Below, in pieces: positions 293 to 44,700 of a DNA stretch of 64,000 bases. Position 1 is the first letter of the stretch. Every line of letters begins with the position of its first letter. The notes under the pieces were generated by a model that was not told the origin of the DNA, made no database searches, and saw only the letters and a program-made list of their open reading frames with translations. Source of the DNA: Candidatus Omnitrophota bacterium (lineage in GTDB: Bacteria > Omnitrophota > Omnitrophia > Omnitrophales > Aquincolibacteriaceae); contig JAFGHI010000042.1 of NCBI GenBank assembly GCA_016930235.1, positions 2,550 to 66,549 on the forward strand, given 5' to 3'. Both the position numbers and the translations under genes were made by a program.

Positions 293-439
293 GGATAAGC
301 CAATTTTAAGCATGATGAATAAAAAAGGCCAGAAAAAAAATTTTAACTATCGGTGAATAAAATCGATATATTAGGTAGAATAAGCGATAAAAATTTCAGC
401 CGTTTTTAAAATGCGGGGACAATAGGAAAGGGTTGGAAC

Positions 440-808: not shown

Positions 809-827
809 TTCTTCCGGGGAATGATTT

Positions 828-1187: not shown

Positions 1188-1192
1188 GAATC

Positions 1193-2074: not shown

Positions 2075-2239
2075 CCTATCCTCGATGTCTTTAGAATTTT
2101 TAAAAGAAGATTAGAGACTTTTTTGGAATCTTTGATAGAATACGAAACATAATACTTGACCCCCAAAGTAGGATGCGTCTGTCTACAGATTAATCGTTTA
2201 ATAACTTATTGGTATTAAAAGAGTAAGGAAGAGTGAACC

Positions 2240-4384: not shown

Positions 4385-4474
4385 AGAATAATGTAATTCG
4401 TTTCTGCAATTTGGGTTAGCCATCAGATTTCGATTTTTTCCCTTCTTAAAATTCAATGCCTCCGATTTTTGAAG

Positions 4475-4530
4475 TTGAAAACTTCCTTTAAATTTGTAGA
4501 ATGACCCAAGAATTGTTCAGAAATTCACAA
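4475..4530 (+). promoter_or_regulatory. Sigma70-like promoter (TTGAAA-16-TAGAAT) with a Rex-operator-like palindrome TTGTTCAGAAATTCACAA at about +3
   Basis: TTGAAA at 4475-4480 and TAGAAT at 4497-4502. The 18-bp site at 4513-4530 resembles the Rex box consensus TTGTGAA-n4-TTCACAA and lies directly upstream of rex. Confidence 0.4.
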
Positions 4531-22185: not shown

Positions 22186-22204
22186 TTAAAATAGGGATGA
22201 GGTC

Positions 22205-23215: not shown

Positions 23216-23239
23216 AATTGCTGTCTGAGAAAACAAGGG

Positions 23240-25615: not shown

Positions 25616-25886
25616 GATGTGTTTGGCCGTGCCGGGTAAGATTATAAGCATTACAAATGAAGGGACTCTTGAACGGAAGGGAAAAGTCAGTTTCGGGGGT
25701 GTGATGCGGGATGTCAATCTTGCTTACGTGCCCGAGGCCCAAATCGGAAATTATGTCGTTGTTCATGTTGGAGTTGCCATTAACATATTAGATGAAAGTG
25801 AGGCTATGAAAGTGTTTGATTATCTTAAAGAAATAAACGAACTCAATGAACTTGAAAACAAGGAAGGGGGCGAGAGCCATGAGTAA
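25608..25886 (+). CDS. hypC: [NiFe] hydrogenase maturation chaperone HypC
   Basis: The N-terminal MCLAVPGKI is the conserved HypC/HupF start. Confidence 0.85.
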   Translation: MFEMCLAVPGKIISITNEGTLERKGKVSFGGVMRDVNLAYVPEAQIGNYVVVHVGVAINILDESEAMKVFDYLKEINELNELENKEGGESHE

Positions 25887-28800
25887 GAATTGTATTACGA
25901 TGGATGGAAATGAAGCAGTGGCTCATGTTGCCTACCGGATTAACGAGGTGATTGCGATTTATCCGATTACACCCTCCTCAGCCATGGGGGAATGGGCCGA
26001 TGCCTGGATGTCGGAAGGCAAACCCAATGTGTGGGGAACGATCCCTTCAGTGGTCGAGATGCAAAGCGAAGGCGGTGCTGCGGGTGCGATTCACGGTTCT
26101 TTGCAGACAGGCGCTTTATCGACGACGTTTACGGCTTCGCAAGGTCTTCTTCTGATGATTCCGAACATGTTTAAGATTGCAGGGGAACTGACGGCCGGTG
26201 TTATCCACGTTGCGGCGCGTTCGATTGCAGCTCAGGCCCTTTCTATTTTTGGGGACCACAGCGATGTAATGGCGGCCCGCAGTACCGGCTTTGCCATGCT
26301 TTGCTCGGGGTCTGTCCAGGAAGCCATGGATTTCGCCCTTATTTCTCAAGCGGCTTCGCTTGAGGCTAAAATCCCCTTTGTGCACTTTTTTGAAGGTTTC
26401 CGTACTTCCCACGAGGTCCAGAAGATCGAGTTACTCTCTGATGATGATATCCGCTCGATGATGGACGACAACCTGGTTTCAGAACACCGCGCACGTGCCT
26501 TGTCGCCGGATCATCCGGTTTTAAGGGGAACCGCTCAAAATCCCGATGTCTACTTTCAAGGCCGGGAGACGGTCAATCCGTATTACCAGAAGGCGCCTGG
26601 GATTGTCCAAAAGGTGATGGATAAGTTTGCCAAACTGACAGGCCGTCAGTACCGTTTGTTTGAGTATTTTGGTGCACCGGATGCAAAACAGGTGGTCGTC
26701 ATTATGGGTTCGGGCAATGAACCTGTCCATGCAACAGTGGATGCTATGCATGAGGCGGGGGACAAAGTAGGTGTCTTAAAACTTCGGCTTTACCGGCCCT
26801 TTGATATTCAAGCCTTTGTCAGTGCGTTGCCTAAAACCGTTGAAGCGATCGCTGTTCTCGACAGGTGCAAAGAACCCGGAAGTATGGGGGAGCCTCTTTA
26901 TTTGGATTGTGTCTCGGCGTTAAACGAAGCCGTCGAGAATGGGACCGCGCCTTTTTCTAAAATGCCGAAGATCGTTGGTGGGCGATACGGACTATCATCC
27001 AAGGAATTTACGCCGGCGATGGCCAAAGGTGTTTTTGATAATCTCAAATCCGGGAAACCCAAGAATCACTTTACGATCGGGATTCAGGACGATGTTTCCG
27101 GGACAAGCCTTCCTTATGACCCTGAATTTTCGACTGAACAAAAAGATGCGTTCCGGGCCCTTTTCTACGGTCTCGGGTCGGACGGGACGGTCGGCGCCAA
27201 CAAGAATACGATCAAAATTATTGGTGAAAACACTTCCAATTATGCCCAGGGGTATTTCGTTTATGACTCCAAAAAATCCGGAGCGGTGACGGTTTCTCAT
27301 CTGCGTTTTGGCCCCAAAGAAATCAAAGCACCTTATCTTATTACGAAGGCAAACTTTGTGGGTTGCCACCAGTATATTTTTATTGAAAAGTTTGATGACA
27401 TGCTGGACCGGCTTGTCCCGGGCGGAACGTTTCTTCTGAATTCACCTTATGATTCTGAAAAAACATGGGATGAGCTTCCCAGGGTCTTCCAGGAGAAGAT
27501 GATTCAGAAAAAGATAAAATTTTTCGTGATTGATGCTGTGAAAGTCGCTAAAGATTCGGGGCTTGGCCAGCGCATTAATACCGTGATGCAGGTATGCTTC
27601 TTCGGTATTTCCGGTGTCCTCCCGCGCGAAGAAGCTATCAACGCGATCAAGAAGTCCATCCAGAAAACTTACGGGAAAAAGGGAAATGAGATTGTGCAGA
27701 TGAATTTGAAAGCGGTTGACATGTCTCTGGAACATCTTCATGAGGTTAAGGTTTCGGCGAAAGCAACAAGCCAGAAAGAAATGCCAGCCTTGGTTTCTAG
27801 CACAGCGCCTGATTTTGTCCGTGATGTTTTAGGAAAAATTGTTGCCTGCCACGGCGATGAGCTTCCGGTCAGTGCGATGCCGGCGGACGGAACCTATCCC
27901 ACAGGGACCGCCTGCTGGGTGAAGCAGAATCTCGCTCTTGAAATCCCGGTTTGGGATCCGGAGGTTTGTATCCAATGCGGAAAATGCGCGATGGTGTGTC
28001 CGCATGCGGTGATCCGGATTAAGGCCTATGATCCGAAGTGTTTGGAGAAGGCGCCCAAGACGTTTAAGTCCAAGGAAATGAAGGATCCGACGTTGAAGGG
28101 ATTAAGCTATACGATTCAGGTTTCACCGGAAGACTGCACGGGTTGTGCCTTGTGTGTGGATGTTTGTCCTGCGAAGAATAAATCGCAGACGCGCTTAAAG
28201 GCCATCAATATGGAACCCCAGCCGCCTTTGAGGGAACAAGAGAAAGAAAACTGGGAGTTTTTTCTTTCCTTACCGGAAATTGACCGGAAGATCCTTAAAC
28301 TCAATATGGTGCGTCACCAGCAGCTTCAGCAGCCGCTGTTTGAATTTTCCGGGGCCTGTGCGGGCTGCGGGGAAACACCCTATGTGAAGTTGGCGAGCCA
28401 GCTTTTCGGCGACCGGATGATTGTTGCGAACGCAACGGGTTGCTCGTCCATTTACGGGGGCAATTTGCCGACGACGCCGTGGACGAAGAACAAGGAAGGG
28501 CGCGGTCCGGCATGGTCCAATTCGCTTTTTGAGGACAATGCGGAATTCGGTTTGGGTTTCCGGTTGGCCGTTGACAAACAGAAAGAGTTTGCCTTGGAAC
28601 TTTTAAAGAAGATAGCGTCCGAGGTCGGAACGGACCTGGCCGACGGAATCCTCAAGGCGGCACAAAAAACAGAGGCTGAGATTTTTGAGCAGCGGGAACG
28701 TGTGGAAGCCTTGAAAAAGAAATTGAATGGTTTGAGTTCTCAGGATGCCAAACGCCTGCTTGCGGTTGCCGACATGCTCGTTAAGAAAAGTGTGTGGATT

Positions 28801-29493
28801 ATGGGCGGTGACGGATGGGCCTACGACATTGGATTCGGAGGCCTGGATCATGTCCTTTCGATGGGGCGTGATGTCAACCTTCTTGTCTTGGATACGGAGG
28901 TTTATTCCAATACCGGCGGGCAGATGTCGAAATCGACACCGCGCGGGGCTGTTGCTAAATTTGCGGCGGGCGGCAAGCCGGCGGCGAAAAAGGATCTGGG
29001 GATCATTGCGATGACCTATGGCAATGTGTATGTGGCGAAAGTGGCCATGGGAGCGCGTGATGAGCATACGATCCGGGCATTTCTTGAGGCCGAGGCTTAT
29101 GAAGGCCCGTCTCTTATTATTGCCTACAGCCATTGCATTGCTCATGGGATCCGAATGTCAACGGCCATGCAAAATCAGAAGGTCGCCGTTGAAACGGGAC
29201 AGTGGCCGCTTTACCGTTTTCATCCGGACAAGGCCCGCGAAGGTCAGAATCCTTTTCAGTTGGATTCCCGCGCTCCGCAGGCGGCCGTCGATAAATTTCT
29301 GATGATGGAGAACCGGTTTAAAATGTTGACGAAGAGCCGTCCTGAAGAGGCCAAGGGGCTTTTTAAACTTGCTCAAAAGGATGTCAATACGCGTTGGAAG
29401 CTTTACGAATATTTAGCCGCCCGGCAGCCGGAAGGCGCAACGGGGGCTAAGGAAGAGAAACCAACTTTACAAAATTCAGGGAAATCATCCTAA
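25879..29493 (+). CDS. nifJ: Pyruvate:ferredoxin (flavodoxin) oxidoreductase, single-polypeptide PFOR (NifJ/Por)
   Basis: The start MSKNCITMDGNEAVAHVAY is typical of PFOR. Also present are a two-cluster ferredoxin domain (CIQCGKCAMVCP...CTGCALCVDVCP) and the TPP domain GDGWAYDIGFGGLDH. Start at ATG 25879 overlaps hypC by 8 nt. Confidence 0.9.
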   Translation: MSKNCITMDGNEAVAHVAYRINEVIAIYPITPSSAMGEWADAWMSEGKPNVWGTIPSVVEMQSEGGAAGAIHGSLQTGALSTTFTASQGLLLMIPNMFKIAGELTAGVIHVAARSIAAQALSIFGDHSDVMAARSTGFAMLCSGSVQEAMDFALISQAASLEAKIPFVHFFEGFRTSHEVQKIELLSDDDIRSMMDDNLVSEHRARALSPDHPVLRGTAQNPDVYFQGRETVNPYYQKAPGIVQKVMDKFAKLTGRQYRLFEYFGAPDAKQVVVIMGSGNEPVHATVDAMHEAGDKVGVLKLRLYRPFDIQAFVSALPKTVEAIAVLDRCKEPGSMGEPLYLDCVSALNEAVENGTAPFSKMPKIVGGRYGLSSKEFTPAMAKGVFDNLKSGKPKNHFTIGIQDDVSGTSLPYDPEFSTEQKDAFRALFYGLGSDGTVGANKNTIKIIGENTSNYAQGYFVYDSKKSGAVTVSHLRFGPKEIKAPYLITKANFVGCHQYIFIEKFDDMLDRLVPGGTFLLNSPYDSEKTWDELPRVFQEKMIQKKIKFFVIDAVKVAKDSGLGQRINTVMQVCFFGISGVLPREEAINAIKKSIQKTYGKKGNEIVQMNLKAVDMSLEHLHEVKVSAKATSQKEMPALVSSTAPDFVRDVLGKIVACHGDELPVSAMPADGTYPTGTACWVKQNLALEIPVWDPEVCIQCGKCAMVCPHAVIRIKAYDPKCLEKAPKTFKSKEMKDPTLKGLSYTIQVSPEDCTGCALCVDVCPAKNKSQTRLKAINMEPQPPLREQEKENWEFFLSLPEIDRKILKLNMVRHQQLQQPLFEFSGACAGCGETPYVKLASQLFGDRMIVANATGCSSIYGGNLPTTPWTKNKEGRGPAWSNSLFEDNAEFGLGFRLAVDKQKEFALELLKKIASEVGTDLADGILKAAQKTEAEIFEQRERVEALKKKLNGLSSQDAKRLLAVADMLVKKSVWIMGGDGWAYDIGFGGLDHVLSMGRDVNLLVLDTEVYSNTGGQMSKSTPRGAVAKFAAGGKPAAKKDLGIIAMTYGNVYVAKVAMGARDEHTIRAFLEAEAYEGPSLIIAYSHCIAHGIRMSTAMQNQKVAVETGQWPLYRFHPDKAREGQNPFQLDSRAPQAAVDKFLMMENRFKMLTKSRPEEAKGLFKLAQKDVNTRWKLYEYLAARQPEGATGAKEEKPTLQNSGKSS

Positions 29494-29530
29494 ATCGTGC
29501 AGCGCAGGTTGAGCCAGGAGGAGTAAAACA

Positions 29531-30547
29531 ATGGATTTAACGACTGATTATATGGGAATGACTCTTAAAAATCCCTTAGTGCCGTCGGCTTCGCCGTTAT
29601 CGGAATCGATCGGTAATATTAAGAGAATGGAGGACTCGGGTGCAGCGGCCGTTGTTCTTCACTCTCTTTTTGAAGAGCAGTTGCGTCTTGAGCAACAGGA
29701 GCTTCATCACCATTTGACCGAGCACACCGACAGCTTTGCGGAAGCCTTGTCTTTTTTCCCGGAGCCGAGTGAATTTTCGGTGGGTCCGGAGGAATATCTG
29801 AATCATATCCGGAAAGCGAAAGCGGCGGTGAGTATCCCTGTGATCGCGTCGTTAAACGGTGCGACTCCCGGGGGCTGGACGGATTATGCCAAGAAGATGG
29901 AACAGGCAGGCGCGGATGCCATCGAACTGAACATCTACAATATCCCGATGGATATGGATCAAAGCCCTAATGATATTGAGAAAGTTTATGTTGAGATCCT
30001 GAAGGCCGTGAAAAAAACAGTGAATATCCCTGTGGCTTTAAAGATCGGCGGTTTTTTCACCAATCCCTCTTATTCCATCAAAAAGTTTGCGGATGCCGGG
30101 GCCGATGCGATGGTCCTCTTCAACCGGTTCTACCAGCCGGATATCGATCTGGAGACCTTAGAGATCAAATCTGATGTAGTTTTGAGCACGATCCATTCGA
30201 TGCGGCTTCCTTTAAGATGGATCGCGATGCTTTACGGGAGGGTCAAATGTGATTTTGCGGCCACCCGTGGGATTCATACAGCGGAAGATGCGATCAAGAT
30301 GATTATGGTCGGCGCAAACGTAACGATGCTGTGCTCGGTTCTGATGAAGCAGGGGATCGGCCAGATCAAAAAGATCGAGGAAGAGATGAAGGCCTGGATG
30401 GAAGAACATGAGTATGAGTCCGTGGGTCAAATGCGGGGAAGTATGAGCCAGCTTTACTGCGATAATCCTTCGGTCTATGAGCGCTCGCAGTATATTCGCG
30501 TTCTGAAGAGTTACAAGCCGGAATTTCAGACGCCTTATGGGGCTTAA
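29531..30547 (+). CDS. Dihydroorotate dehydrogenase-like / dihydropyrimidine-dehydrogenase-like FMN TIM-barrel oxidoreductase
   Basis: DHOD family-1-like pattern (PLVPSASPLSES, IASLNG, NIPVALKIGG, GADAMVLFNRF, ATRGIHTAEDAIKMIMVGANV). The exact function is uncertain. Confidence 0.5.
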   Translation: MDLTTDYMGMTLKNPLVPSASPLSESIGNIKRMEDSGAAAVVLHSLFEEQLRLEQQELHHHLTEHTDSFAEALSFFPEPSEFSVGPEEYLNHIRKAKAAVSIPVIASLNGATPGGWTDYAKKMEQAGADAIELNIYNIPMDMDQSPNDIEKVYVEILKAVKKTVNIPVALKIGGFFTNPSYSIKKFADAGADAMVLFNRFYQPDIDLETLEIKSDVVLSTIHSMRLPLRWIAMLYGRVKCDFAATRGIHTAEDAIKMIMVGANVTMLCSVLMKQGIGQIKKIEEEMKAWMEEHEYESVGQMRGSMSQLYCDNPSVYERSQYIRVLKSYKPEFQTPYGA

Positions 30548-30581
30548 GATTCAAACGTTGCTTGATTAAGGATCACGGGGG

Positions 30582-30614
30582 AGCGCAGGCTTTAAAACCT
30601 GCGCTTCTTTTTTT
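30582..30614 (+). terminator. Rho-independent terminator
   Basis: agcgcagg-ctttaaaa-cctgcgct stem-loop followed by tcttttttt. Confidence 0.55.
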
Positions 30615-30640
30615 AAGGGCAGGATGATTCTACGAGGTTT

Positions 30641-31732
30641 ATGATGAAATACGTTGATGAATACCGGGACGGAAAATTGGCCGGACAGTTTGCGGATGCC
30701 ATCAAGCGGACCGTCACAAAACCCTGGACGGTGATGGAAGTTTGCGGTGGGCAGACGCATGCGATTGTCCGGTTTGGCTTGGATGAACTCCTGCCGTCTT
30801 CACTCAATCTGATTCACGGTCCCGGATGTCCCGTTTGCGTAACGCCGCTCGAATTGATTGATCAAGCCGTTGAAATTGCGTCACTCGAGAATGTGATTTT
30901 CTGTTCCTTCGGGGACATGCTGCGGGTACCGGGTTCACGCAGGGATCTCTTTTCCGTCAAGGCAAGCGGGGGAGATGTCCGTATCCTTTATTCGCCCTTG
31001 GATGCTTTAGCGATTGCATCTGAGAACCCGCGTAAAGAGGTTGTCTTCTTTGCGGTCGGATTTGAAACGACGGCGCCTGCCCACGCGATGGCGGTGAAAC
31101 AAGCTTGGGAGCGGGGCATTCGAAATTTCAGCATTCTTGTTTCACACGTTTTGGTCCCGCCTGCGATGGAGGCGATTCTCGCTTCTCCCCATAACCGTGT
31201 TCAGGGTTTTTTGGCGGCCGGACACGTTTGTACCGTTATGGGCTATACGGAATACGAACCTCTTGCTCGGAAGTATAAGGTCCCGATTGTGGTCACGGGT
31301 TTTGAGCCGAGCGATATCCTGCAGGGACTTTTCATGTGTGTCAAACAGTTGGAAGAAGGACGAACGGAAGTCGAAAATCAATATGCCCGTTCTGTCAAGC
31401 GTGAAGGCAATCGGAAGGCGCGGGAAACGGTGCGTGAAGTTTTTCAAGTGATTCCCCGAAAATGGCGGGGGATAGGAGAGATCCCCAAAAGCGGACTCGG
31501 CCTTCGGGAGAAATATGCGGTCATGGATGCGGCGAAGAGATTTAATTTGACGAGTTACGAAGCAGAAGAGTCCCCCGATTGCATCAGCGGATTGATTTTG
31601 CAGGGGCTGAAGAAACCTGACGAGTGTCCCGCTTTCGGAAAAAAATGCACGCCCGAACATCCTTTGGGGGCGACGATGGTTTCCTCCGAGGGTGCTTGCG
31701 CCGCTTATTACCGCTATCGGGGTTCACGATGA
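30641..31732 (+). CDS. hypD: [NiFe] hydrogenase maturation protein HypD
   Basis: MKYVDEYRD start, [19 protein letters not shown], and the C-terminal CxxH motif region. Confidence 0.9.
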
Positions 31733-31738
31733 ACCGCT

Positions 31739-31830
31739 GGCGCCCACCGCGTAGGTGGCCTTTTCAATCATTCCTAACGTTAGGTTTGTTCGAAATTCCC
31801 ACCTACGCGGTGGGCGAAGCGGTGGGCGAG
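31739..31830. repeat. Nested-palindrome intergenic repeat element, copy 1 (REP-like)
   Basis: cgcccaccgcgtaggtgg...ccacctacgcggtgggcg form an 18-bp inverted repeat around a loop containing the cctaacgttagg palindrome. The first 50 bp are identical to copy 2 at 51484-51533. Confidence 0.7.
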
Positions 31831-31856
31831 CCCCGTCCAACGGAGCGAGGAGCGAA

Positions 31857-32909
31857 ATGACAAAAAAAGAATTTAGCATGCAATGTCCGTTACCGGTTCG
31901 GGATTATCCGCGTGTGCTTTTGGCCCACGGCGGAGGCGGGAAGCTGATGCATCAGATGATCGAAAAGATTTTTGCCTCGAGTTTTCAAAATGAGATCCTC
32001 AAGAAGAGGCACGATAGCGCTATCTTGTCTTTACCCTCCTCAAAAATCGCGATGACAACGGATTCTTATGTGGTGCGGCCTCTTTTCTTCCCCGGCGGAG
32101 ATATCGGGAGCATGTCGGTTTATGGGACGGTCAATGATCTGGCGATGGCAGGCGCCAGGCCTAAATATTTGAGTGCGGGGTTTATCCTTGAAGAAGGTCT
32201 TGAGATGGAGACCTTGTGGAAAGTTGTCCAGTCAATGGCTGACGCGGCGAAGGAATGCGGGATTGAACTTGTGACCGGAGATACCAAGGTGGTCGACAAA
32301 GGCAAAGGCGATGGCATTTTTATCAATACGACAGGAATAGGTGTCTTCGAGCATTCCCAGGCGATTGAGCCGCAAAGCATCCGGACGGGAGATAAAATTA
32401 TCCTGAACGGAGACCTGGGACGTCACGGGATTGCCGTGATGATTGCCCGAGAGGGACTTTCCTTAGAAAGCCAGATCGAGAGTGACTCGGCGTCTTTAGC
32501 GGATCTTGTCATGAAATTGTTGGACCTGAAGGTTGAGATCCATTGTCTGCGGGACCTCACACGCGGCGGTCTTTCGAGTGCCTTGAATGAACTTGCCGAA
32601 ACGCGCGGTGTTCAAATCCGTGTCGAAGAAAAATCTATCCCGGTCCGCGAAGATGTTCACGGCGCTTGCGAGATTCTGGGATTGGACCCGCTTTATGTCG
32701 CGAATGAAGGCAGGTTCCTTGTTTTTGTCAAAGCAGGGGATGCCGATAAGGTTTTGAAGGTCATCAAATCACATCCTCTGGGTGAAGCCGCCTCCGTGAT
32801 CGGAGAAGTAACAAAAGAGAAAGATCCTCGAGTGACTTTGGTCAATCAAGTCGGGACAAGCCGGATCCTTGACATGCTCTCCGGAGAACAGCTCCCGCGC
32901 ATTTGTTGA
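31857..32909 (+). CDS. hypE: [NiFe] hydrogenase maturation protein HypE
   Basis: PurM/AIR-synthase-related fold ending in the conserved C-terminal PRIC, whose Cys is carbamoylated/cyanated. Start at ATG 31857. The longer ORF from 31755 would run through the repeat element. Confidence 0.85.
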
Positions 32910-33228
32910 TGTCGGTCGTCACCGTCGCCCGCAACACCAATGAAATTTTTCTCACCCTTTTTACTTGAGATATCACCTCTATCTATTTCCTAACTTTATA
33001 AGCAAAGGGACCATTTATAGGCAAATTATCCTATCCGTAACTTCTTTGAAATCAATTGGATATCGTTGGCTTTCAATAAATAACTATTTAGAGCTATTTG
33101 ACTATTTACAATATAAGTGTTAGCTTTCTAAGGATGTTTATTAAGTATGATTTTTGCATTTAGTTAAAGCTTCCGAAGAAATCGGAGTGGATCTTCAAAG
33201 CCGGTTCACGAGAAAGAGGTAAACTGCC

Positions 33229-34293
33229 ATGGAGAAAAAACGAAATGAAGAAAAAAGAAACAAGAAATTATTTATCGAGGATTTAGAAATTAGGAGAAGC
33301 ACATCGCCATTATTTTTTGCGGCTTTTACAGCTGATATCCAAAATGACGGTACTGAACCGACGAATCCGGAAAAACCTGTGGATGCGCAACCGGACAGCC
33401 AGTCAGCCCAAGAAATTCAGGTTCATCCCGTCACGAATTTACATGAGCCAAATACGATTGTTCCTGCTCGGGTAACTCCAGATGAAATGTGGACTTCGGA
33501 TTTCACTCGAATGGGCGAAGATATGGTTATTTCAACGATGGCAGTGGGCGAAGAAGGTGCTTCGGAGTATAATCCCATTCGATTTGTTTCATCTTCGTCC
33601 TCGCCTGCACCGGTGCCGACGCCCGCGCCTTCTCCGTCGCCTTCGATTGAAGCCAGCCCAACTCCGCATGCGAGTCCGTCGCCGGCTTACAATCCGGCAG
33701 GCATTTCTCCGGGGGAAACGGCGGGGAATGAAACAATGCCTGTTTCGAATGTGCACGGTCCAAGTCCTGAAGCCGCTTCCGAGCCGGTGCTGAGTCAAGA
33801 AATTCAGGTTAATTCCGTACCGGCCACGCCTGAAACGAGCACGGCTGTTCCAACGCGGGTTACTCCCGAAGAAACGTGGACATCGGATTTCACTCGAATG
33901 GGCGAAGAGATGGTTATTTCAACGATGATGGTCGGTGAAGAAGGTACTTCGGAGCTACACCCCATTCGATATTTTTCCAGTCCGTCTTCACCTGCGCCGG
34001 TGCCGACGCCTGCGCCTTCGCCGTCACCTTCGCTGGAAGCGAGTCCTGCTCCTCATCCAAGTCCTGAAGCCGCTTCCGAACCGGTGCCAAGTCAAGAGAT
34101 TCAGGTTAATCCCGTCGCGCCTGCGCCGGTGCCGACGCCTGCGCCTTCGCCGTCACCGAATCCAAGTCCTAGCCCCCTGTCATCGTCTGCTTATGTATCA
34201 CCAGGACAGTTGACGACCATGATGCTGGGTGAAGAAGCTGAGATTGAACTTACGACCATGATGTTAGGGGAAGAAGGCGAAACGGTCGTTTAA
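33229..34293 (+). CDS. Putative multi-core graspetide (microviridin-like) precursor peptide/protein with Pro/Ser-rich spacers
   Basis: Leader-like SPLFFAAF (nt 33307-33327) resembles the microviridin PFFARFL motif. Two near-identical roughly 120-aa modules contain WTSDFTRMGE(D/E)MVISTM(A/M)VGEEG. The C-terminus has tandem TTMMLGEEAEIEL and TTMMLGEEGETVV units. PAPVPTPAPSPSPS linkers are repeated three times at both DNA and protein level. Confidence 0.5.
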   Translation: MEKKRNEEKRNKKLFIEDLEIRRSTSPLFFAAFTADIQNDGTEPTNPEKPVDAQPDSQSAQEIQVHPVTNLHEPNTIVPARVTPDEMWTSDFTRMGEDMVISTMAVGEEGASEYNPIRFVSSSSSPAPVPTPAPSPSPSIEASPTPHASPSPAYNPAGISPGETAGNETMPVSNVHGPSPEAASEPVLSQEIQVNSVPATPETSTAVPTRVTPEETWTSDFTRMGEEMVISTMMVGEEGTSELHPIRYFSSPSSPAPVPTPAPSPSPSLEASPAPHPSPEAASEPVPSQEIQVNPVAPAPVPTPAPSPSPNPSPSPLSSSAYVSPGQLTTMMLGEEAEIELTTMMLGEEGETVV

Positions 34294-34357
34294 TTTGTGT
34301 GGATTTTAGACTATCTATCAATCTTAGGTGACATCTGACCGTTAATTTAAACAGATT

Positions 34358-35308
34358 ATGACGAATTCGAAACCTAAGATCCTCATTGTCGGTGCTCCAA
34401 ACGAACGCCATAGCCATTACATGGCGCAGCGTATTGCGCAAAAAGGCGGTTCTCCCCTAATTTTGGATACACTCAATTTTCCCGCCAAGGTCAAACTTTC
34501 GCTTAGGAATGAAAAGATATTTTATCAAGGGGAACCGCTTGATGAAATAGCAGGGTGTTATCTGAGAACCGTGGTTTTTTTTCTGCCGCCTTATGATTTG
34601 GAAGATAAAAGAAATGCCGAAGGAAAACTCGAAACCGACAATTGGTACCGGGATTACAGGGCCGAACGGGAACGCCAATCGCATTTGGGATCTTTGCTGC
34701 GAGTACTCTTTTTTCGGAATATCCCGGTGGTGAATCCCGTGTCGGCGTTTACGCTTCATTATTTAAAACCCCTGCAGCTTGAGATGTTGAGGAGAGAAGG
34801 GATCCGGGTTCCCGAAACGCTTGTAACGAACGATCCCAAAAAACTTCTGGAATTCAAACAAGAAGTCGGAAAGGTTATTTTTAAACCGGTGGCTGGAGGG
34901 GCCGAATGCCGGGAACTTACCGAAGAGCATTTGAAACCTGAGAAACTCGAAAGATTGCAGAACGCACCGGTTCTCTTTCAGGAGCTCATACCGGGTGAAA
35001 ATGTCCGCGTTTATATTTTGGAGTCGAGAATCCTTGTTGCTGTCATCATCAAATCCGAGACCCTCGATTATCGGGGGCATGAGCAGGGATTCCAAATCAT
35101 CAATCTTCCTCCTGAGGTTGCCCAAATATGCATCAAGGCGATGAGAATTTGCGGGCTTAAGTTTACGGGGATGGATCTTCGTTTGACTCCCGGCGGGGAA
35201 TTCGTGGTCATCGAATGCAATCCTTCGGCGATGTTTATGGGGATCGAGGAAATCCTAAAAGTCGATATCAGCGGGGCCCTTGCCGATTTCCTTATGGGAC
35301 GCTCATGA
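34358..35308 (+). CDS. ATP-grasp peptide maturase (MdnC/RimK-like, graspetide ligase)
   Basis: The N-terminal pre-ATP-grasp region ILIVGAPNERHSH...LDTLNFPAKVKLSL mirrors the MdnC N-terminus. The ATP-grasp core ends in VVIECNPSAMFMGIEE. It lies directly downstream of the precursor-like ORF. Confidence 0.7.
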   Translation: MTNSKPKILIVGAPNERHSHYMAQRIAQKGGSPLILDTLNFPAKVKLSLRNEKIFYQGEPLDEIAGCYLRTVVFFLPPYDLEDKRNAEGKLETDNWYRDYRAERERQSHLGSLLRVLFFRNIPVVNPVSAFTLHYLKPLQLEMLRREGIRVPETLVTNDPKKLLEFKQEVGKVIFKPVAGGAECRELTEEHLKPEKLERLQNAPVLFQELIPGENVRVYILESRILVAVIIKSETLDYRGHEQGFQIINLPPEVAQICIKAMRICGLKFTGMDLRLTPGGEFVVIECNPSAMFMGIEEILKVDISGALADFLMGRS

Positions 35309-36201
35309 ATCCTCTTGCCTTCCAGTATGGGCGCTTGGGGCGGGGCAAATTGTGGGTTGAAGGGCCGGACAGGCGTTTTACGCAAATCGATGATAAAACG
35401 CTGCATATCATCCTTGATCTCAATGATCGTTTTGACTGGGAGCTGATTCAAAAAAGGCACGGTATTTCAAAACAGGAATTGGAAGATCTTGAAAAATGGA
35501 TACGATCCAAAGATTTGGAAGCTGCGGAACCAAAGCATGGCAGGATAGAACGTCTCGACCGATTCCGAACCCCTTTGGATTTAAGCGGTTTCCTTTATTT
35601 TTTAGCTTTGATGATCGTGATTCAAGCCTTGTATTGGGAAGCTTTGGCGCGACATGTTTCGCTTACAGCCCCCTCCCAAATTTTTGTTATTTTTCCAATT
35701 GCCTGTGCCGGCATCATCTTTCATGAGCTGGGGCATTTTTTGGCTTTAAGGCCCTATACTCGGCCAAGGCTCGGCATGACATGGATTTTTTTTCTGCCGG
35801 CTGTCTTTGTGCAGTCGGATGTTCTCTGGAAATTATCCCGTTCGAGGCGCGTATTGGTGAACTTGATGGGAATTTTTGCCGATTCCATTTTCAACTGTCT
35901 AGCCATTTTGTGGGTTTTCCTCAATCCGTCCTTCGAGCCTTGGGTCACACCACTTTTGGTGACCCAGTACATCCGGTGGCTGATTGTTTTGAATCCTTTG
36001 TTTCAAGGCGACGGCTACTGGCTTTTCTCGGATTTGTTCGGGGTGGTAAATTTAAAAACCGAGGGCAGCCGAGATTTTAAACGAAGAAAGGTTAATGTTT
36101 TTTTCTTTTACCATCTGGCTCGAATGGTTTTTACGATTGTGATCCTTTTGAGTCTTGCACTTATGATTTATCATCTCTTAGAGGAGGTTCTATTCCGATG
36201 A
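35305..36201 (+). CDS. M50/site-2-protease-family intramembrane zinc metalloprotease (putative leader peptidase)
   Basis: HELGH sits in a TM helix and NPLFQGDG (NPxxxxDG) further on, the two signature S2P motifs. A roughly 90-aa soluble N-terminal domain is present. Start ATG overlaps the ATP-grasp stop (ATGA). Confidence 0.55.
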   Translation: MNPLAFQYGRLGRGKLWVEGPDRRFTQIDDKTLHIILDLNDRFDWELIQKRHGISKQELEDLEKWIRSKDLEAAEPKHGRIERLDRFRTPLDLSGFLYFLALMIVIQALYWEALARHVSLTAPSQIFVIFPIACAGIIFHELGHFLALRPYTRPRLGMTWIFFLPAVFVQSDVLWKLSRSRRVLVNLMGIFADSIFNCLAILWVFLNPSFEPWVTPLLVTQYIRWLIVLNPLFQGDGYWLFSDLFGVVNLKTEGSRDFKRRKVNVFFFYHLARMVFTIVILLSLALMIYHLLEEVLFR

Positions 36202-36725
36202 ACTATCTATTCGGTTTAACAACGGCTCTGAAAATTGTTTTTGCGATGAGTCTTTTGTCCATGCTAACGGCCCTTTTTGTCCGGCTGGTTTATGAATTTG
36301 AAAGAGGGGTTTTATTCCAAAACGGAAAATTTAAGAAGGTTGTCGATCCCGGGATCGTTTTTTTGGTTCCACTCCTTAATCAACTGGACAAAGTGGATAT
36401 GAGGGAATTTGAGATTGAAATACCAAGGATCTATGTGGTCATGAAGGACGCAAAGCTTCTGGCGGTTGAGATTCATGCGAGCTTTCAGGTGAGTGATGCC
36501 GCCAAGGCGGTTATTGAAACGCAAGATTACTATGAGACTGCGAAGATGGATACCGTAATGATTGTCTCGGATTATCTGTCACAAATTACGATGGACGACA
36601 TGGTGAAAGATTTGCCAGCAATCAAGCAGAAGCTAAGAGAATTTGCAGGTCGTAAGCTGTCATTTTGCGGATTGAGGGTTGTGGGGCTGGAAATCAATCC
36701 GGTTATCACACATCGTTCAGAGTAA
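36198..36725 (+). CDS. SPFH/band-7 domain protein (stomatin/HflC-like), short form
   Basis: N-terminal TM helix, then YEFERGVLFQNGKF...DPGIVFLVPL, which is typical of the SPFH domain start. Confidence 0.6.
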   Translation: MNYLFGLTTALKIVFAMSLLSMLTALFVRLVYEFERGVLFQNGKFKKVVDPGIVFLVPLLNQLDKVDMREFEIEIPRIYVVMKDAKLLAVEIHASFQVSDAAKAVIETQDYYETAKMDTVMIVSDYLSQITMDDMVKDLPAIKQKLREFAGRKLSFCGLRVVGLEINPVITHRSE

Positions 36726-36860
36726 TAACCTTCTACTCCGTGTCCAGCTTCAATTGTTTGTTGATGTGCCCCTTCCCGGAATGAGATGATAAGAAGCGAA
36801 ATAACGCTTCCTTTTAATCGCGTTTTTTAATAAACTTTTCCTGAAGAAGGAGAATTCAAC

Positions 36861-37055
36861 ATGTCGATGGAACGTTGGATCCGTTTGATTGCCGGCAGTT
36901 TTATCCTGATCAGCCTGGCCCTGGCGTATGGGGTGAGTAAGTGGTGGCTCCTTTTTACCGCATTTGTCGGAGTCAATCTGATTCAGTCAGCCTTGACCCG
37001 ATGGTGTTTGATGGAGAAGATTCTCAAGAAGCTGGGCGTCAAACAAAGTTGTTGA
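36861..37055 (+). CDS. Small inner-membrane protein (DUF2892/YgaP-like)
   Basis: 64 aa, two TM helices, R-x2-R...G...L pattern; a weak family call. Confidence 0.35.
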   Translation: MSMERWIRLIAGSFILISLALAYGVSKWWLLFTAFVGVNLIQSALTRWCLMEKILKKLGVKQSC

Positions 37056-37124
37056 GAGTCGAGACGTAACATCACTTGATCGTGAACATGCCGTTGGAAG
37101 CTAACGAAACCGCGTAAAGGAGCA

Positions 37125-38474
37125 ATGGACGTCGTTTTACTTTCCAGGATTCAGTTTGCGCTAACGATCGGTTTTCATTATATCTTTCCTCCCGTCAGTA
37201 TCGGGCTTGCCCTTGTCCTTGTGATTATGGAAGGCCTTTTTCTGAAGACCCAGAACCCCCTTTACCGGCAGATGGTCCATTTCTGGGTTCGCATCTTTGC
37301 GCTTATTTTTTCACTCGGTGTTGCCAGCGGCATTGTGATGGAATTTGAGTTCGGGACGAATTGGGCCAATTATTCCCGGTTCGTGGGGGATGTTTTCGGA
37401 AGCCCCCTGGCGGCTGAAGGGATGTTTGCCTTCTTTCTTGAATCGACATTCTTAGGTATTCTTCTTTTCGGATGGAATCGAGTGGGACCCAAAATGCATT
37501 TCTTCTCAACTCTAATGGTCGCTCTGGGTTCGACGATGAGCGCCTTTTGGATCATTGTCGCCAATTCCTGGATGCAGACCCCGGCCGGTTATCATGTGGT
37601 CACAGAAGGGTCCCATCGGCGCGCCGAAATCACGGATTTCTGGGCGATGGTCTTTAATCCTTCGAGTATGGACCGTTTTACCCATACGATGGTCGGTGCC
37701 TGGCAGGCCGGGGCATGGCTTGTGGTCAGTGTCGGCGCTTATTATCTTTTAAGGAAACGCCACGAAGCATTTTCCAAAGCGTCCATCAAGATCGGACTTG
37801 TGATCGCCCTTGTTTCATCGGTCCTTCAGCTGACGACGGGGCACACGAGCGCGATCGGGGTCAGCAAAAATCAACCGGCGAAATTGGCGGCGTTTGAAGG
37901 GCATTATGAAAAAAAGGCCCCCGCGCCGCTTTATCTTTTCGGCTGGGTCGATGAGGCGAATGAACGCGTCCGTTTCGGTTTGGGGTTTCCCGGTATGCTG
38001 GGTGTCCTTATTTCGGGAGATCCCAAGATGCAGATTCAAGGCCTCAGGGCATTTCCCCAAGAAGACCGGCCCCCGGTTCAAATCGTTTTTCAGACCTATC
38101 ACTTGATGGTCATGATTGGAATGGGCTTGATTGGTCTCAGCCTTCTTGGGGTTTTTCTTTGGTGGCGAGGAGCCCTCTTCCAATCGAAGTGGATGCTTTA
38201 TCTTTTGACAATTGCCTTCCTGGGCCCCCAAATCGCGAATCAGGTCGGCTGGGTTGCCGCTGAAGTCGGCCGGCAGCCTTGGATTGTTTACGGCCTCCTG
38301 AGAACTTACGAAGGGGTTTCCCCCGTGGTCTCGAGTGCTGAGGTTCTGGCCTCAATCCTGATGTTCAGTTTTATTTATCTCATTCTCTTCGTTTTATTTA
38401 TCTATCTCATGATTCGCAAAATCGAAAAAGGTCCTGAAGAAGCAATGCGGGAAGGTGTCCCGGCTTCTTATTAA
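37125..38474 (+). CDS. cydA: Cytochrome bd ubiquinol oxidase subunit I
   Basis: IQFALTIGFHYIFPPVSIGL N-terminus; Q-loop GWVAAEVGRQPW. Confidence 0.9.
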   Translation: MDVVLLSRIQFALTIGFHYIFPPVSIGLALVLVIMEGLFLKTQNPLYRQMVHFWVRIFALIFSLGVASGIVMEFEFGTNWANYSRFVGDVFGSPLAAEGMFAFFLESTFLGILLFGWNRVGPKMHFFSTLMVALGSTMSAFWIIVANSWMQTPAGYHVVTEGSHRRAEITDFWAMVFNPSSMDRFTHTMVGAWQAGAWLVVSVGAYYLLRKRHEAFSKASIKIGLVIALVSSVLQLTTGHTSAIGVSKNQPAKLAAFEGHYEKKAPAPLYLFGWVDEANERVRFGLGFPGMLGVLISGDPKMQIQGLRAFPQEDRPPVQIVFQTYHLMVMIGMGLIGLSLLGVFLWWRGALFQSKWMLYLLTIAFLGPQIANQVGWVAAEVGRQPWIVYGLLRTYEGVSPVVSSAEVLASILMFSFIYLILFVLFIYLMIRKIEKGPEEAMREGVPASY

Positions 38475-38489
38475 TGGAAAGGGCACGGT

Positions 38490-39518
38490 ATGGATTTACC
38501 GGTAAGCTTCAATGAGATCTGGTTTCTTTTAATCGGGGTTCTATTGACAGGCTATGCCTGCCTAGACGGATTTGATTTGGGTGTCGGATCTCTCCACCTC
38601 TTAACGAAATCAGACCGTGACCGACGAATTTTTCTGAATGCAATCGGCCCGGTCTGGGACGGGAATGAAGTCTGGCTGGTGGTAGGCGGCGGAGCCCTTT
38701 TTGCGGCTTTTCCCAAGGTTTATGCCAGTGTCTTCTCGGGATTTTATATCGCGTTTATGCTGTTCTTGCTGGCCTTGATCTCGCGAGCAGCGTCTATTGA
38801 ATTCAGGAGTAAGGAACCGATGGGTTGGTGGAGACAGCTTTGGGATATAGTCTTTAGCCTCTCGAGTATCCTGGCCAGTATCCTTTTAGGCGTCGCTCTC
38901 GGGAATCTGGCGTGGGGGATTCCGCTTACCGCAGAAGGGGATTTCGCTATTGGATTTTTGGGGCTGCTTCATCCTTATAGTTTACTGGTAGGTCTTACAA
39001 CGCTGGCCCTTTTCATGCTTCACGGGAATATTTACCTTCTTGTGAAAACAGAAGGGGACCTCCAGACGGAAGTGCGCCGCTGGTTTCCTTCGGTGATGAT
39101 TTTCTTTTTGATTTGTTTTGTCGTGACGACCCTCATGACTTTAGCGAAGGTGCCCCGGATGACGGCTCTTATTCGCGAATATCCCGTCCTCGGTATCTTT
39201 TCCATCCTCAATCTCTTGGCGATTGTGAATCTCGTGCGGGAAGTTTACCGGGAACGGTTCGCGCAGGCATTCTTTTCTTCCTGTATGACGATTGTAACCC
39301 TGCTTATTTTATTCGCGTTGGGGACCTATCCTAATTTTGTTTATTCTGCGGGAAGCCCGGAATACAGCCTTACTATTTTTAATGCGTCCTCATCAGATAA
39401 AACGTTAACAGTGATGCTCGTGATTGTGGCCATCACACTTCCTTTTGTTTTGGCTTATACCGCTTATGTTCACTGGGTTTTTAGGGGAAAGGTTAGAATG
39501 GAACCGATAGGAAAGTAA
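38490..39518 (+). CDS. cydB: Cytochrome bd ubiquinol oxidase subunit II
   Basis: IWFLLIGVLLTGYACLDGFDLGVG is the canonical CydB N-terminus; polytopic. Confidence 0.85.
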   Translation: MDLPVSFNEIWFLLIGVLLTGYACLDGFDLGVGSLHLLTKSDRDRRIFLNAIGPVWDGNEVWLVVGGGALFAAFPKVYASVFSGFYIAFMLFLLALISRAASIEFRSKEPMGWWRQLWDIVFSLSSILASILLGVALGNLAWGIPLTAEGDFAIGFLGLLHPYSLLVGLTTLALFMLHGNIYLLVKTEGDLQTEVRRWFPSVMIFFLICFVVTTLMTLAKVPRMTALIREYPVLGIFSILNLLAIVNLVREVYRERFAQAFFSSCMTIVTLLILFALGTYPNFVYSAGSPEYSLTIFNASSSDKTLTVMLVIVAITLPFVLAYTAYVHWVFRGKVRMEPIGK

Positions 39519-41739: not shown

Positions 41740-44700
41740 ATGAAAATTGACAATCTAACGAATCGAGCGACAAGTATCTTAACGATACTTGTTTTTTTAT
41801 TTTCGCAGGTGATAGTTTTTCCCACGCAGTCGATCGCTGCTGATCCCGTTCAGCAAATCCAGGATCGACAGGCGGAAGTTTCTTTGGAAGTCAAAGAAAC
41901 AGATCATTCCGATATTAATCCTGAAGAAAGATATCTCGATAGGAGTCTGGCCACTTTCTTTGAGCCTGTTGCCATTACAAAAGTAGCGGCGGTACGAACG
42001 CCGGCGTCACCTAAACCCCACGCATCGCCGGTACCTAATGCGTCTCCGAGCCCAACGAGTTATGCGTCACCAAGCCCAAGAAGTTCTTCGTCCCCGTCGC
42101 CGGTTCAAGTGCAAAGCGTTTTTAGCGGAGTCCTCGTAAAAGTTCCTGATGATCAGCCGAGTTTTCTGATGCGGTCGGTCTACCGTTTGCAAATTGACGC
42201 GAACCGTTCGATTTTGGTGGATGGCGCCGATGAAGTGGGTCAAAAATTACTGCCTCTCTATGAAGGCCAAGAAGTTGAATTACGCGGTGAATTTTTCGAA
42301 CTGGAAGGGATGCAGATTTTAAAGGTCACCCATATTAACGGGGAACCTGTCGAAGATTTACTCAATGAACTGCCTGATCCCACGAAGTATCCCACGGAAT
42401 CTGAGATGGAGGCGATACAGGGGCTTGGATCGGATATCGTTAAATTTGACAAAGCGACGGTTCGTGAGGACGGGATGAGGGAATATCAATTTTCTTCGTC
42501 ACCCAATGCGGCCGGAAGATTCCTTCAAATCGAAGTGACTTATGATCCTTGCGGCGGGATGCTTAAATGCCTGGCGCCGATCAGGATCAAGACCTTTCAA
42601 ATTGTTTTTGATCCGGGGCCGGTTTCGAGCGGAGAAATAATCCAGCTGCCGCCTCACGCGTTTCTTGATGTTTCTAAAGTTGAAGGTGTTATTCATCTTC
42701 CCGCGGGCGCGAAGTTCACGCTGGGGTTCCCCAGTGACAACTGGCTCCTATTTGATCTGGAGACGCAGATTACCGAACAGCCCGTCCGCGAAGTCGTTAT
42801 CCAGGATTTAGTCCAGACTTTTGGATTGGATGAATCCGGGATTCGATCGATGCTGGAACGGGGGGATATGAGTATCACGGTGGATCTAGAAAATCAAAAA
42901 GTTAAAGTCCATATGCCCGGTCATTTTAATTATACGCCCGTGGCGGCGGTGCCTTTCGGCGGGGTTTACCAGCCTAATCTTTTAGGTGATGAATACATCA
43001 GCTCTGAGATTACCTATCAATATGAAACGACGACGTCTGAGGATAAGATTCATCTTGTTGCGGCGGAGTTTCGACATAGCGGCAAGGTCTTCCGGTTAAG
43101 TTATGCGACCCCAGCGACCTCTCCGGCATCCGCAGTTCTCAATAACAAATTGTATTCAGTGACCGTTTCCGAAGAGGTTGAGACGCCATGTCTTATGGCG
43201 CCGTGTCCCGTTCAGGAGAAGTTGATTAAGCGGGTGCGATATATTTACTATGCGGATTCTGTGAACCCTGCTATGGCCGGGATCCAATATCTAGGTGAGA
43301 GCAGTGTGGCGTACCGGACGGTGACTTTTGTGGAACGCGAGACGGGTTTATTTGTGGATACCGTTGCGGATTTTGATTCCCAGGATAATTTGATCGCTGC
43401 GAATAAATTTTATTATACGGAGAATGCGGTTTGTGAGGCGATTTCGCCCTGCCACATCGAAAAGATTGAGCGCACGAAACCCCAAGGTGAGAGCAAAACC
43501 CAACGTGTGCTTGTTTCCGTCATTTCGGATTTTGAATATATCTTGTTGATAGGCGGGAAGTTTCCGATGGTGGCGACGATCACGCGCGCGGACGGTGTTT
43601 CTAAAGAGGTGAGATTCGGAAGCGCGGTTGAAGGAATTTTGGAGGAGGCCCTCGAATTCGAAAGCGAATATGATCCAGAACGCGCTGCATTAGAAGAATT
43701 TATTGCGGAATGGAGCCGGTTAAAAGCTGCCTACATGGATTACTTGCTGGAGCAGTTAGAGCCGATTCGGGATATGGGAGCGGCTATGACGGAGACAGAA
43801 CTCGAAGTTTTGCTTGAGGCATCGGATTTAAATGAAGCCCAAAGGGAGCGGTTGAGGCGGTTACATTTTGCTTTGACTTATATGCTTCATACGGTGGATT
43901 GGGTGTTTGATCAGTCATTAACACTTGTAGAACTGCCGGATTGGTATGCTGAATTTGCGGAGGCGGAAGGTTTTTCTTCCGTCGGGCTATATGTTTTCGG
44001 GGATATCGATACCTCCGGCATGTCCTTGGAGGAATTGCGTGAGACGGTCAATGAGATTAGGGATTATACGGCAGGCGAAGATTTGGAGTCATTCTTTGCC
44101 GGAATAGCAGCCGGGGTACCGGAATCCGCTGCGAGTATTATAGCGAGAACGAATCAGATCAACGCCGAGCTGGAAGCGCTGCGGGCGAATGAAAGAATTA
44201 GCCTTCTTAAAGAAAGGGCGCAGGCGCTCTTGGCGAGTAAGACGGAGGAAGTTAATAATTACATTCAGACGCTTCAAGAGCGTATTGATGTTCTCGAGGG
44301 GCTATTAAGCGAGGCGGATGAAGCCAATCTTCAGATGGAAGAATTGTATGCGCTTTTGATGGAGGAACGTGAGCGGCTTGTCAATTTATCAATGCAATAT
44401 CCGGAGGTTGATTTGAGTGATTTGGGCGGGAGCAATGAGATCATTCTCGAGGGGCTGAACGGATCGGGTGTCCAGGACCGGGATTATTACACGGCGTGGA
44501 CGATTTGGCGCGAGAACGTAGCTCGGCTTATCAGCCGTTATGAAGAGGGTATCGCAGTAAATCAAGAGGGCCTGGCTGAATTGGAAGCGCTTGCCAGTCA
44601 AATTTCGGCGTCTAATGATCCATCCGAAATCAAGCGCCTCTTGGATGAGATGATGGACAAGGCCGAAGACTTGCCGGTACCGATGGTTTTTCATCCCATC

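Follow-up and report, generated by a model that had tools for sequence, protein, structure and literature searches.

A single open reading frame (ORF) at 33229-34293 of a 64,000-nucleotide stretch of contig JAFGHI010000042.1 from a Candidatus Omnitrophota bacterium (the window, by which we mean this whole stretch) very probably encodes the precursor of a group 2 graspetide, that is, a plesiocin-type or omega-ester-containing peptide. The ORF lies on the forward strand, spans 1065 nucleotides and 354 residues, and houses all of the repeats described in an original prediction made from the sequence. Its product is identical to JW893_05975, deposited as a hypothetical protein from a Candidatus Omnitrophica metagenome-assembled genome (MAG). 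The proposal of a multi-core precursor of a ribosomally made peptide that carries post-translational modifications (RiPP), with Thr/Ser donors and Glu acceptors, is supported by an LFIEDL leader motif, by cores of the TTxxxxEE type and by a homologue of the plesiocin macrocyclase PsnB encoded 64 nucleotides downstream. The class is already known; what is new is this member from Omnitrophota.

The precursor N-terminus reads MEKKRNEEKRNKK-LFIEDL-EIRRSTSPLFF. Its recognition element, LFIEDL (33268-33285, residues 14-19, including Phe15 and Asp18), has the same sequence and the same residue numbers as the conserved leader region of the plesiocin precursor PsnA2, which is needed for binding of PsnB through Phe15. 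The element is followed by the leader tail EIRRSTSPLFF (33286-33318), of a type that co-occurs with an M50-like protease. No double-glycine site like that of myxobacterial plesiocin precursors was found after the leader element, an RRSTSPLFF-type tail standing in its place, and the window operon encodes no transporter. The N-terminus is highly charged and carries no signal peptide, and the precursor protein has no match in Pfam or NCBIfam.

The cores STMAVGEE, STMMVGEE, TTMMLGEE and TTMMLGEE fit the TTxxxxEE motif of plesiocin, the founding group 2 graspetide, in which each of four such cores is closed to a hairpin by two Thr-Glu lactones, the inner ring first. Repeat search, codon analysis and a pattern scan all identify core 1 (STMAVGEEG, 33532-33558), core 2 (STMMVGEEG, 33919-33945) and the tandem units of cores 3 and 4, TTMMLGEEAEIEL (34213-34251) and TTMMLGEEGETVV (34252-34290), the last of which forms the C-terminus. 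These are the two 13-residue C-terminal units of the original prediction, and the three linker copies and four cores that it listed are likewise all present in the ORF. The third core ends in GEEA, not GEEG. The strict pattern [ST]T..[LIVMT]GEE has four matches in the six frames of the window, all of them in this ORF, and at least one match occurs in only 18 of 20,000 shuffles of the precursor protein; a chance origin of the four cores is therefore excluded.

The gene that starts 64 nucleotides downstream (34358-35308, forward strand) encodes a PsnB-type ATP-grasp macrocyclase of 316 residues. Among solved structures the closest homologue is that of PsnB (PDB 7drm, E-value 3.3e-59, residues 1-314 aligned), followed by a microviridin-pathway ligase at 2.9e-19, and RiPP ATP-grasp maturases are its closest models in NCBIfam, all of them below their equivalog cut-offs. 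The window enzyme and the PsnB of the Plesiocystis locus (L034) are 37% identical in a global alignment. In the published study of PsnB, recognition of core, ATP and leader was assigned to Arg72, Arg213, the D(F/W)R loop, Arg101 and the Phe15 pocket. The contacting residues are conserved or conservatively replaced in the window enzyme: R72 corresponds to R70, the group 2a-specific R101 to R104, R213 to R217 and DFR to DYR (D237-Y238-R239), while in the Phe15 pocket Y171, I193, L196, V201 and F203 become F175, L197, L200, V205 and F207. PsnB R181 is kept as R185 and R192 is replaced by K196. The single exception among the residues singled out in PsnB is Thr180 of the nucleotide loop, which is Cys in the window enzyme.

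By homology to PsnA2 and PsnB, the leader would bind the adjacent ATP-grasp enzyme via Phe15 of LFIEDL and activate it. The activated enzyme would phosphorylate the side-chain carboxylates of both Glu residues in each [ST]-T-M-x-x-G-E-E core, with the inner Glu7 expected first and Glu8 second, and these would be attacked by Thr2 and then by Ser/Thr1. Two nested lactones, joining positions 2 to 7 and 1 to 8, would make each core a bicyclic hairpin, and the four canonical cores would yield four such hairpins with eight ester bonds, displayed like beads on Pro-rich, probably extended, spacers. By analogy we expect a multivalent product that inhibits serine proteases. Plesiocin gains inhibitory potency with the number of its cyclised motifs, and a similar rise with hairpin number is one possible rationale for repeat expansion.

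Repeat structure and duplication history of the precursor

The gene grew by DNA-level duplication. Its largest repeat is a direct repeat of 289 nucleotides (33409-33697 and 33796-34084) with 76% identity and a spacing of 387 nucleotides. We refer to the copies as module A, which comprises QEIQVHPV, a variable spacer, a pre-core block, core 1, PAPVPTPAPSPSPS and EASPTPH, and module B, its paralogue; both are delimited by repeat search and codon analysis. The pre-core blocks, conserved by codon analysis, lie directly ahead of cores 1 and 2 at 33490-33531 (WTSDFTRMGEDMVI) and 33877-33918 (WTSDFTRMGEEMVI). A 72-nucleotide repeat encoding SPEAASEPVxSQEIQVNxV occurs at 33759-33830 (SPEAASEPVLSQEIQVNSV...) and 34056-34127, its copies being 86% identical. 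At the second of these a third module has QEIQVNPV fused straight to the linker, without the core-bearing part. The Pro-rich linker, a stretch of 38 nucleotides encoding PAPVPTPAPSPSP, is found at 33604-33641, 33991-34028 and 34120-34157; copies 1 and 2 are 89% identical and copies 2 and 3 are 100% identical, and the third copy ends in ...SPSPN, not ...SPSPS. The 25-nucleotide core is present in four copies, starting at 33532, 33919, 34213 and 34252, the last two within adjacent 39-nucleotide units at the 3' end. Overall the precursor is 16% Pro and 13% Ser.

This layout agrees with the original prediction in kind and departs from it in detail. Of the near-identical 38-nucleotide segments it had placed at 33608, 33990 and 34123, the first does start there, and the other two start at about 33995 and 34124. 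QEIQV recurs three times, as claimed, from 33409, 33796 and 34093 as opposed to about 33398, 33790 and 34090. The two WTSDFTRMGE(D/E)MVISTM(A/M)VGEEG(A/T)SE blocks are indeed near-identical, with 3 of 26 positions differing, which makes them 88% and not 85% identical.

Modules A and B were compared codon by codon over 96 codons, giving a synonymous divergence (dS) of 0.61 and a nonsynonymous divergence (dN) of 0.20. With dS at about 0.61 the large duplication is not recent; it is old, and its copies are under purifying selection. The recent module duplication that had been proposed thus holds for the identical linker copies 2 and 3 and fails for the large pair (dS about 0.61, dN about 0.20). 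Over the segment VTPxExWTSDFTRMGExMVISTMxVGEEGxSE dN is 0.09, and the PAPVPTPAPSPSPS linker has a dN of 0 with four synonymous differences, copy 1 against copy 2, while other spacer segments retain only 55-65% nucleotide identity. The core is under purifying selection across module copies, as had been foreseen. The accompanying idea that the spacers drift fits those other segments; the Pro-rich linker and the pre-core block do not drift and are themselves under purifying selection. The 14 residues of the pre-core block, WTSDFTRMGE[DE]MVI, are identical at 13 of 14 positions between copies and so are constrained like the cores.

The sequence thus records an old 387-nucleotide module duplication, which was followed by partial re-duplication or gene conversion of the 72- and 38-nucleotide segments, and also a 39-nucleotide tandem duplication at the 3' end. 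The pre-core block may be a degenerate core; it could bear a further ring, be cut during processing or serve a structural purpose. Descent of the block from the leader tail was considered and rejected, the local alignment score being reached by 653 of 2000 shuffles.

A further stretch of the precursor lies just behind the leader. At 33319-33351 (residues 31-41, AFTADIQNDG), FTADIQNDG occupies the place where several relatives have their first core, for example in STSSLFV-STQAVGEEG. On an alignment made by eye, it may be a decayed first core in which EE has changed to ND.

Core number and spacing in related loci

Relatives were collected from ATP-grasp homologues and their contigs, from a scan of 185,579 species genomes and from a metagenome profile scan, and the 167 loci gathered were analysed by script. 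In about 90 of them a recognisable precursor, with an LFI[ED][ED]L-type leader and repeated cores of the TT-x-A-x-GEEG type, stands beside the enzyme, and precursor and ATP-grasp genes adjoin in dozens of loci from many phyla. Across 310 unique cores the conserved positions are T1 (95%), T2 (95%), A4 (89%), G6 (96%), E7 (100%), E8 (98%) and G9 (82%). The repeats are thus not generic linkers devoid of core spacing, the outcome that the original prediction had named as its refutation: T1, E7 and E8 are near-invariant throughout.

Core number does vary among the related loci, module number in orthologues being a point that the prediction had suggested for checking: it runs from 1 to 30, with 30 cores in 657 residues (L013), 20 in 550 (L019) and 12 in 296 (L020) as examples. 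From one lineage to another the linkers show no relationship, and they are often rich in Pro. Among complete precursors the median length is 273.5 residues in the near clade (range 119-657, n=12) and 70 in the remaining loci (n=66). The nearest relatives, L001, L002 and L004, have enzymes 62-65% identical to that of the window and cores VTTKMLGEEG, VTTMMTGEEG and HTTLALGEEG, with KP- and PV-rich linkers between them. Module number among close orthologues can be compared only through these three, and their contigs end within the precursor. More widely, the precursor ORF runs into a contig end in 13 of 41 near-clade loci (L001, L002, L004, L009, L016, L021, L089-L091, L093 and L099-L101, at 5' ends). 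As contigs break in the precursor repeats, core counts from MAGs are lower bounds or uncertain.

The precursor itself is known from one MAG contig only. A full-length search of 5.8 billion proteins returned the precursor and nothing else, its candidate list being filled by Pro-rich words. Exhaustive HMMER comparison of residues 1-120 with 1.84 billion representatives also recovered only the precursor, so the 129-residue module and the WTSDF block have, to the reach of such sequence searches, no detectable homologue. A chimeric query, assembled from leader, modules and cores and leaving out the Pro-rich parts, gave 55 candidates, none significant, and failed to recover even the precursor itself. 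For the ATP-grasp enzyme, a metagenome scan with the single protein as query found no relatives, and the metagenome profile scan found none above about 50% identity.

Variants of the system were also noted among the loci. In one Patescibacteria-group MAG (L023, 5806-6738) a 309-residue precursor has the same leader and two C-terminal cores only, with proline repeats of the KPIPILAPQPVVGKP type filling about 220 residues ahead of them, an extreme spacer expansion without core expansion. In four Omnitrophota loci (L005, L006, L007 and L011, about 1-4500) a radical S-adenosylmethionine (SAM)/SPASM gene precedes the ATP-grasp, protease and SPFH genes and the precursor differs, with ITPGIGEGG and VLKYAPGPIPKP repeats and the ending TLMVGEDI. 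The gene content of these four loci suggests a hybrid grasp-plus-SPASM pathway.

Downstream M50-like protease and SPFH genes

An ATGA at 35305-35308 holds both the stop codon of the ATP-grasp gene and the start of the gene behind it. That gene (35305-36201, forward strand) encodes a putative, divergent M50-like intramembrane metalloprotease of 298 residues, assigned from motifs, profiles and synteny. A second ATGA, at 36198-36201, joins it to a gene (36198-36725, forward strand) for a 175-residue SPFH/Band 7 membrane protein, which is recognised by a domain match and conserved 3' of the protease in related loci. The protease is a polytopic membrane protein with invariant HExxH and P....DGYW motifs, here HELGH (35722-35736) and NPLFQGDG (35992-36015); H140, E141, H144, P231, D236 and G237 are invariant in an alignment of 15 homologues. 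Peptidase_M50 of Pfam matches 10 of these 15 family members (best E-value 4.8e-5), and the family profile aligns HExxH and NPxxxxDG to the site-2 protease of M. jannaschii (3b4r). In family M50, HExxH lies within a transmembrane helix, and the third zinc ligand is provided by a downstream motif of the NxxPxxxxDG type. In NCBIfam, the daptide HExxH (1.2e-13) and YydH/LiaK (3e-11) models give matches that are weak and below cut-off, and a single-sequence search of the PDB with the protease returned no match.

The full-length model of the protease, with a mean predicted local distance difference test (pLDDT) score of 52.8, was too poor and was not used. The N-terminal 70 or so residues (about 35305-35511) model as a beta3-alpha3 domain (strands 7-12, 15-19 and 25-28, helices 30-42, 45-52 and 56-69) with a pLDDT of 73.7 in single-sequence AlphaFold2. 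The best PDB matches of this model in Foldseek are CteB, McbB, lasso B1/TbiB1, MccB and LynD, all of which bear a RiPP recognition element (RRE, a PqqD-like winged helix-turn-helix), and we describe the domain as RRE-like. The Pfam PqqD model has no match in it.

Where the enzyme reaches 280 bits or more against that of the window, nearly every locus keeps the order ATP-grasp, protease, SPFH. Such loci belong to Omnitrophota, Planctomycetota, a Patescibacteria-group MAG, Ca. Ruminimicrobiellum and a Deltaproteobacteria MAG. Some Bacillota and a Dehalococcoidia MAG have the protease but no SPFH gene, and neither gene is found within 8 kb of psnB or near it in other Nannocystaceae. The SPFH protein is short (172-176 residues) in the window, in L001 (2335-2853) and in L004 (2038-2568), these versions lacking the C-terminal coiled-coil region of the 248-387-residue versions at other loci. 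The pair goes with a clade of long precursors whose leaders have an RRSTSxLF tail where others have the double-glycine site, and leader tail type tracks protease presence. A protease gene accompanies 18 non-redundant leaders with the tail type LExR[KR]S[ST]SxLF, in which we include EIRRSTSPLFF of the window, and none of nine double-glycine leaders (LFIEDLGQVTGG).

From the synteny, the co-variation of motifs and the fold model, we infer that maturation proceeds via the two translationally coupled downstream genes and not via a double-glycine peptidase/transporter. The RRE-like domain of the M50-like protease would bind the leader with its RRSTSPLFF tail, the protease would remove the leader at or near that tail, and the SPFH protein would organise or regulate the protease. 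A number of results weigh against this assignment. The window protease scores 14.7 bits with Pfam PF02163 (Peptidase_M50), where the cut-off is 27.2, and the E-value of the family profile against 3b4r is 0.049. The RRE-like fold is a single-sequence model whose Foldseek E-values are at least 0.1 throughout, with a best probability of 0.97 and a template-modelling score of 0.57. Seven more degenerate leaders of similar tail type have no protease gene in the flank examined.

A double-glycine leader site and a transporter of the NHLM/PCAT type are typical accessories of group 2, if not strictly defining ones. According to a recent survey, peptidase-transporters of the NHLM type are common companions of group 2 clusters, and the literature searched, including two graspetide-survey supplements, contained no graspetide linked to M50-like or SPFH proteins. 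Taken further, and put forward as a tentative idea that we would sooner expect to fail than to hold, the branch with protease and SPFH genes would be an undescribed maturation route among group 2 graspetides, occurring for the most part in phyla without cultured members (Omnitrophota, Planctomycetota, Patescibacteria and others). Here an RRE-fused, intramembrane M50-like protease with an SPFH partner would replace the double-glycine peptidase/transporter, read the RRSTSxLF tail and couple leader removal to membrane passage. The products would be protein-sized, proline-spaced arrays of 120 to over 650 residues with 2-30 ester-stapled hairpins. In the window gene, an additional ring of non-canonical type might form at the WTSDFTRMGE[DE] block.

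Alternative readings, known systems and significance

Assignment of the ORF as a group 2 graspetide precursor has several points against it. Esters, ring order and bioactivity are carried over by homology between enzymes that are 37% identical. Position 1 of cores 1 and 2 is Ser instead of Thr, as in 5% of family cores, and the distance from leader to cores, about 85 to 330 residues, far exceeds that in PsnA2. The module count rests on a single MAG contig, and the strongly conserved WTSDFTRMGE[DE]MVI block is left unexplained. This block gives rise to an alternative that we consider unlikely, namely that the WTSDFTRMGE[DE] blocks are also substrates, so that the precursor would have more than four sites, up to six in all, or another topology. 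The extra site could be one ring that joins Thr to Glu within FTRMGE[DE], or else a larger hairpin of the form TS......EE. Each long module would then bear a fused double unit. The block is conserved like a core (dN 0.09 across the segment, 13 of 14 residues identical) and has a core-like ending in G-E-[DE]; a Rheinheimera group 2 enzyme modifies the non-canonical motifs TTxxxED and VTxxxxED of RcpA, and the C-terminal core pair shows that tandem double units do occur in this precursor. However, the block has D-F where the donor TT aligns, the active site of PsnB is compact and selects its cognate core, and a protease site or structural element would explain the block equally well. It is present in no relative, so comparative support for an extra ring is lacking.

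The dependence on one contig bears on a different alternative, and one that we judge to have little chance of being right: the number and arrangement of modules would be an assembly artefact, with repeats collapsed or mis-joined in a short-read MAG. The fusion of QEIQVNPV to the linker could then be a false join, and the real gene could have more or fewer cores. That 13 of 41 close loci have precursor ORFs running into contig ends indicates that repeats break assemblies, linker copies 2 and 3 do not differ at any of their 38 nucleotides, and the protein is known from this contig alone. Yet identity is only 76% between the large copies and 86% between the 72-nucleotide copies, and every copy has substitutions of its own; by the standard of usual assembly k-mers and read lengths, a 38-nucleotide exact repeat is short; and the reading frame is intact across all repeat junctions. 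Such an artefact, if real, would change how many cores are counted and leave the kind of gene as it is. In a third alternative the ORF would encode an ordinary Pro/Ser-rich, low-complexity envelope or secreted protein, with GEEG unmodified and the ATP-grasp gene a chance neighbour. The composition (16% Pro, 13% Ser), the lack of a Pfam or NCBIfam match and the failure to find a full-length homologue would all suit such a protein. We nevertheless regard it as highly improbable in the face of an exact PsnA2 leader motif at the same residues, a highly charged N-terminus without a signal peptide, four exact core matches far beyond chance, an ATP-grasp enzyme that retains the leader pocket, and the adjacency of precursor and ATP-grasp genes in dozens of loci from many phyla.

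As a group 2 graspetide precursor, the ORF is best compared with PsnA2 of Plesiocystis pacifica (group 2/2a). Common to both are LFIEDL at residues 14-19, four TTxxxxEE-type cores and a single ATP-grasp macrocyclase, homologous over its full length and with recognition residues kept. The psnB-adjacent precursor has about 77 residues (L034) against 354 in the window, few residues lie between its cores whereas the window spacers reach about 120 residues with Pro-rich linkers, its cores begin with Thr-Thr where two window cores begin with Ser-Thr, and its leader tail is GQVTGG in place of RRSTSPLFF. The protease and SPFH genes that follow the window enzyme also have no counterpart within 8 kb of psnB. 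RcpA and RcpB of Rheinheimera likewise combine a plesiocin-type precursor and its TTxxxxEE site with a single ATP-grasp enzyme; near-canonical variant motifs of RcpA are also esterified, and the products inhibit serine proteases (PMC11626197). RcpA differs in being short and in having a double-glycine site and a C39 peptidase-ABC transporter, the window operon being without either the site or the transporter.

The arrangement of one leader, several cores and an ATP-grasp cyclase is also that of the multi-core microviridin precursors, AMdnA/AMdnC (PMC5934393). Microviridins (group 1) differ in their TxKxPSDxxE-type core, in a cage topology with an added lactam and in the use of two enzymes, and the window enzyme matches MdnC with E-values of 3e-19 and weaker, against 3e-59 for PsnB. 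A microviridin-type assignment was considered and rejected, with both the TxKxPSDx(D/E)(D/E) core and a PFFARFL-type leader absent from the 354 residues and the enzyme nearer PsnB than MdnC or MdnB. The window protease, for its part, recalls the epipeptide EpeP/YydH-LiaK and daptide HExxH proteases in placing HExxH in a polytopic membrane protein of a RiPP cluster, and EpeP is thought both to cleave and to export its product. The similarity is confined to the membrane core. The window protease adds the N-terminal beta3-alpha3 (RRE-like) domain, and its clade, unlike the EpeP and daptide proteases, is always paired with an SPFH gene.

The cluster is flanked upstream (19430-32909) by genes for hydrogenase maturation, namely hydF, two radical-SAM genes, hypF, a pyruvate:ferredoxin oxidoreductase gene, a dihydroorotate dehydrogenase-like gene, hypD and hypE, and downstream (37125-39518) by cytochrome bd oxidase genes. 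Its guanine-plus-cytosine fraction outside the Pro-rich part of the precursor is 0.40-0.50, somewhat below the 0.51-0.55 of the hyp genes. A promoter and terminator scan of 32800-37200 gave counts no higher than in shuffles. Farther downstream, at 41740-47736 on the forward strand, an ORF of 1998 residues matches no Pfam family at an E-value of 1e-5 or below.

These findings leave the basic picture of graspetide biosynthesis unchanged. They place a plesiocin-type cluster in Omnitrophota, a phylum of uncultured, often very small bacteria from which the literature searched mentions no graspetide, and the window precursor is unusually long, sparsely cored and proline-spaced for its class. A variable core number with near-fixed donor/acceptor geometry fits the published rise of potency with hairpin number, and long proline-spaced precursors are ready-made scaffolds for the multivalent display of macrocycles. 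The more useful lead is the conserved pair of protease and SPFH genes, which co-varies with the leader tail. Leader removal in graspetides is still unclear for many groups, and an RRE-fused intramembrane protease, a combination that may merit study in itself, would be a testable candidate for this step.

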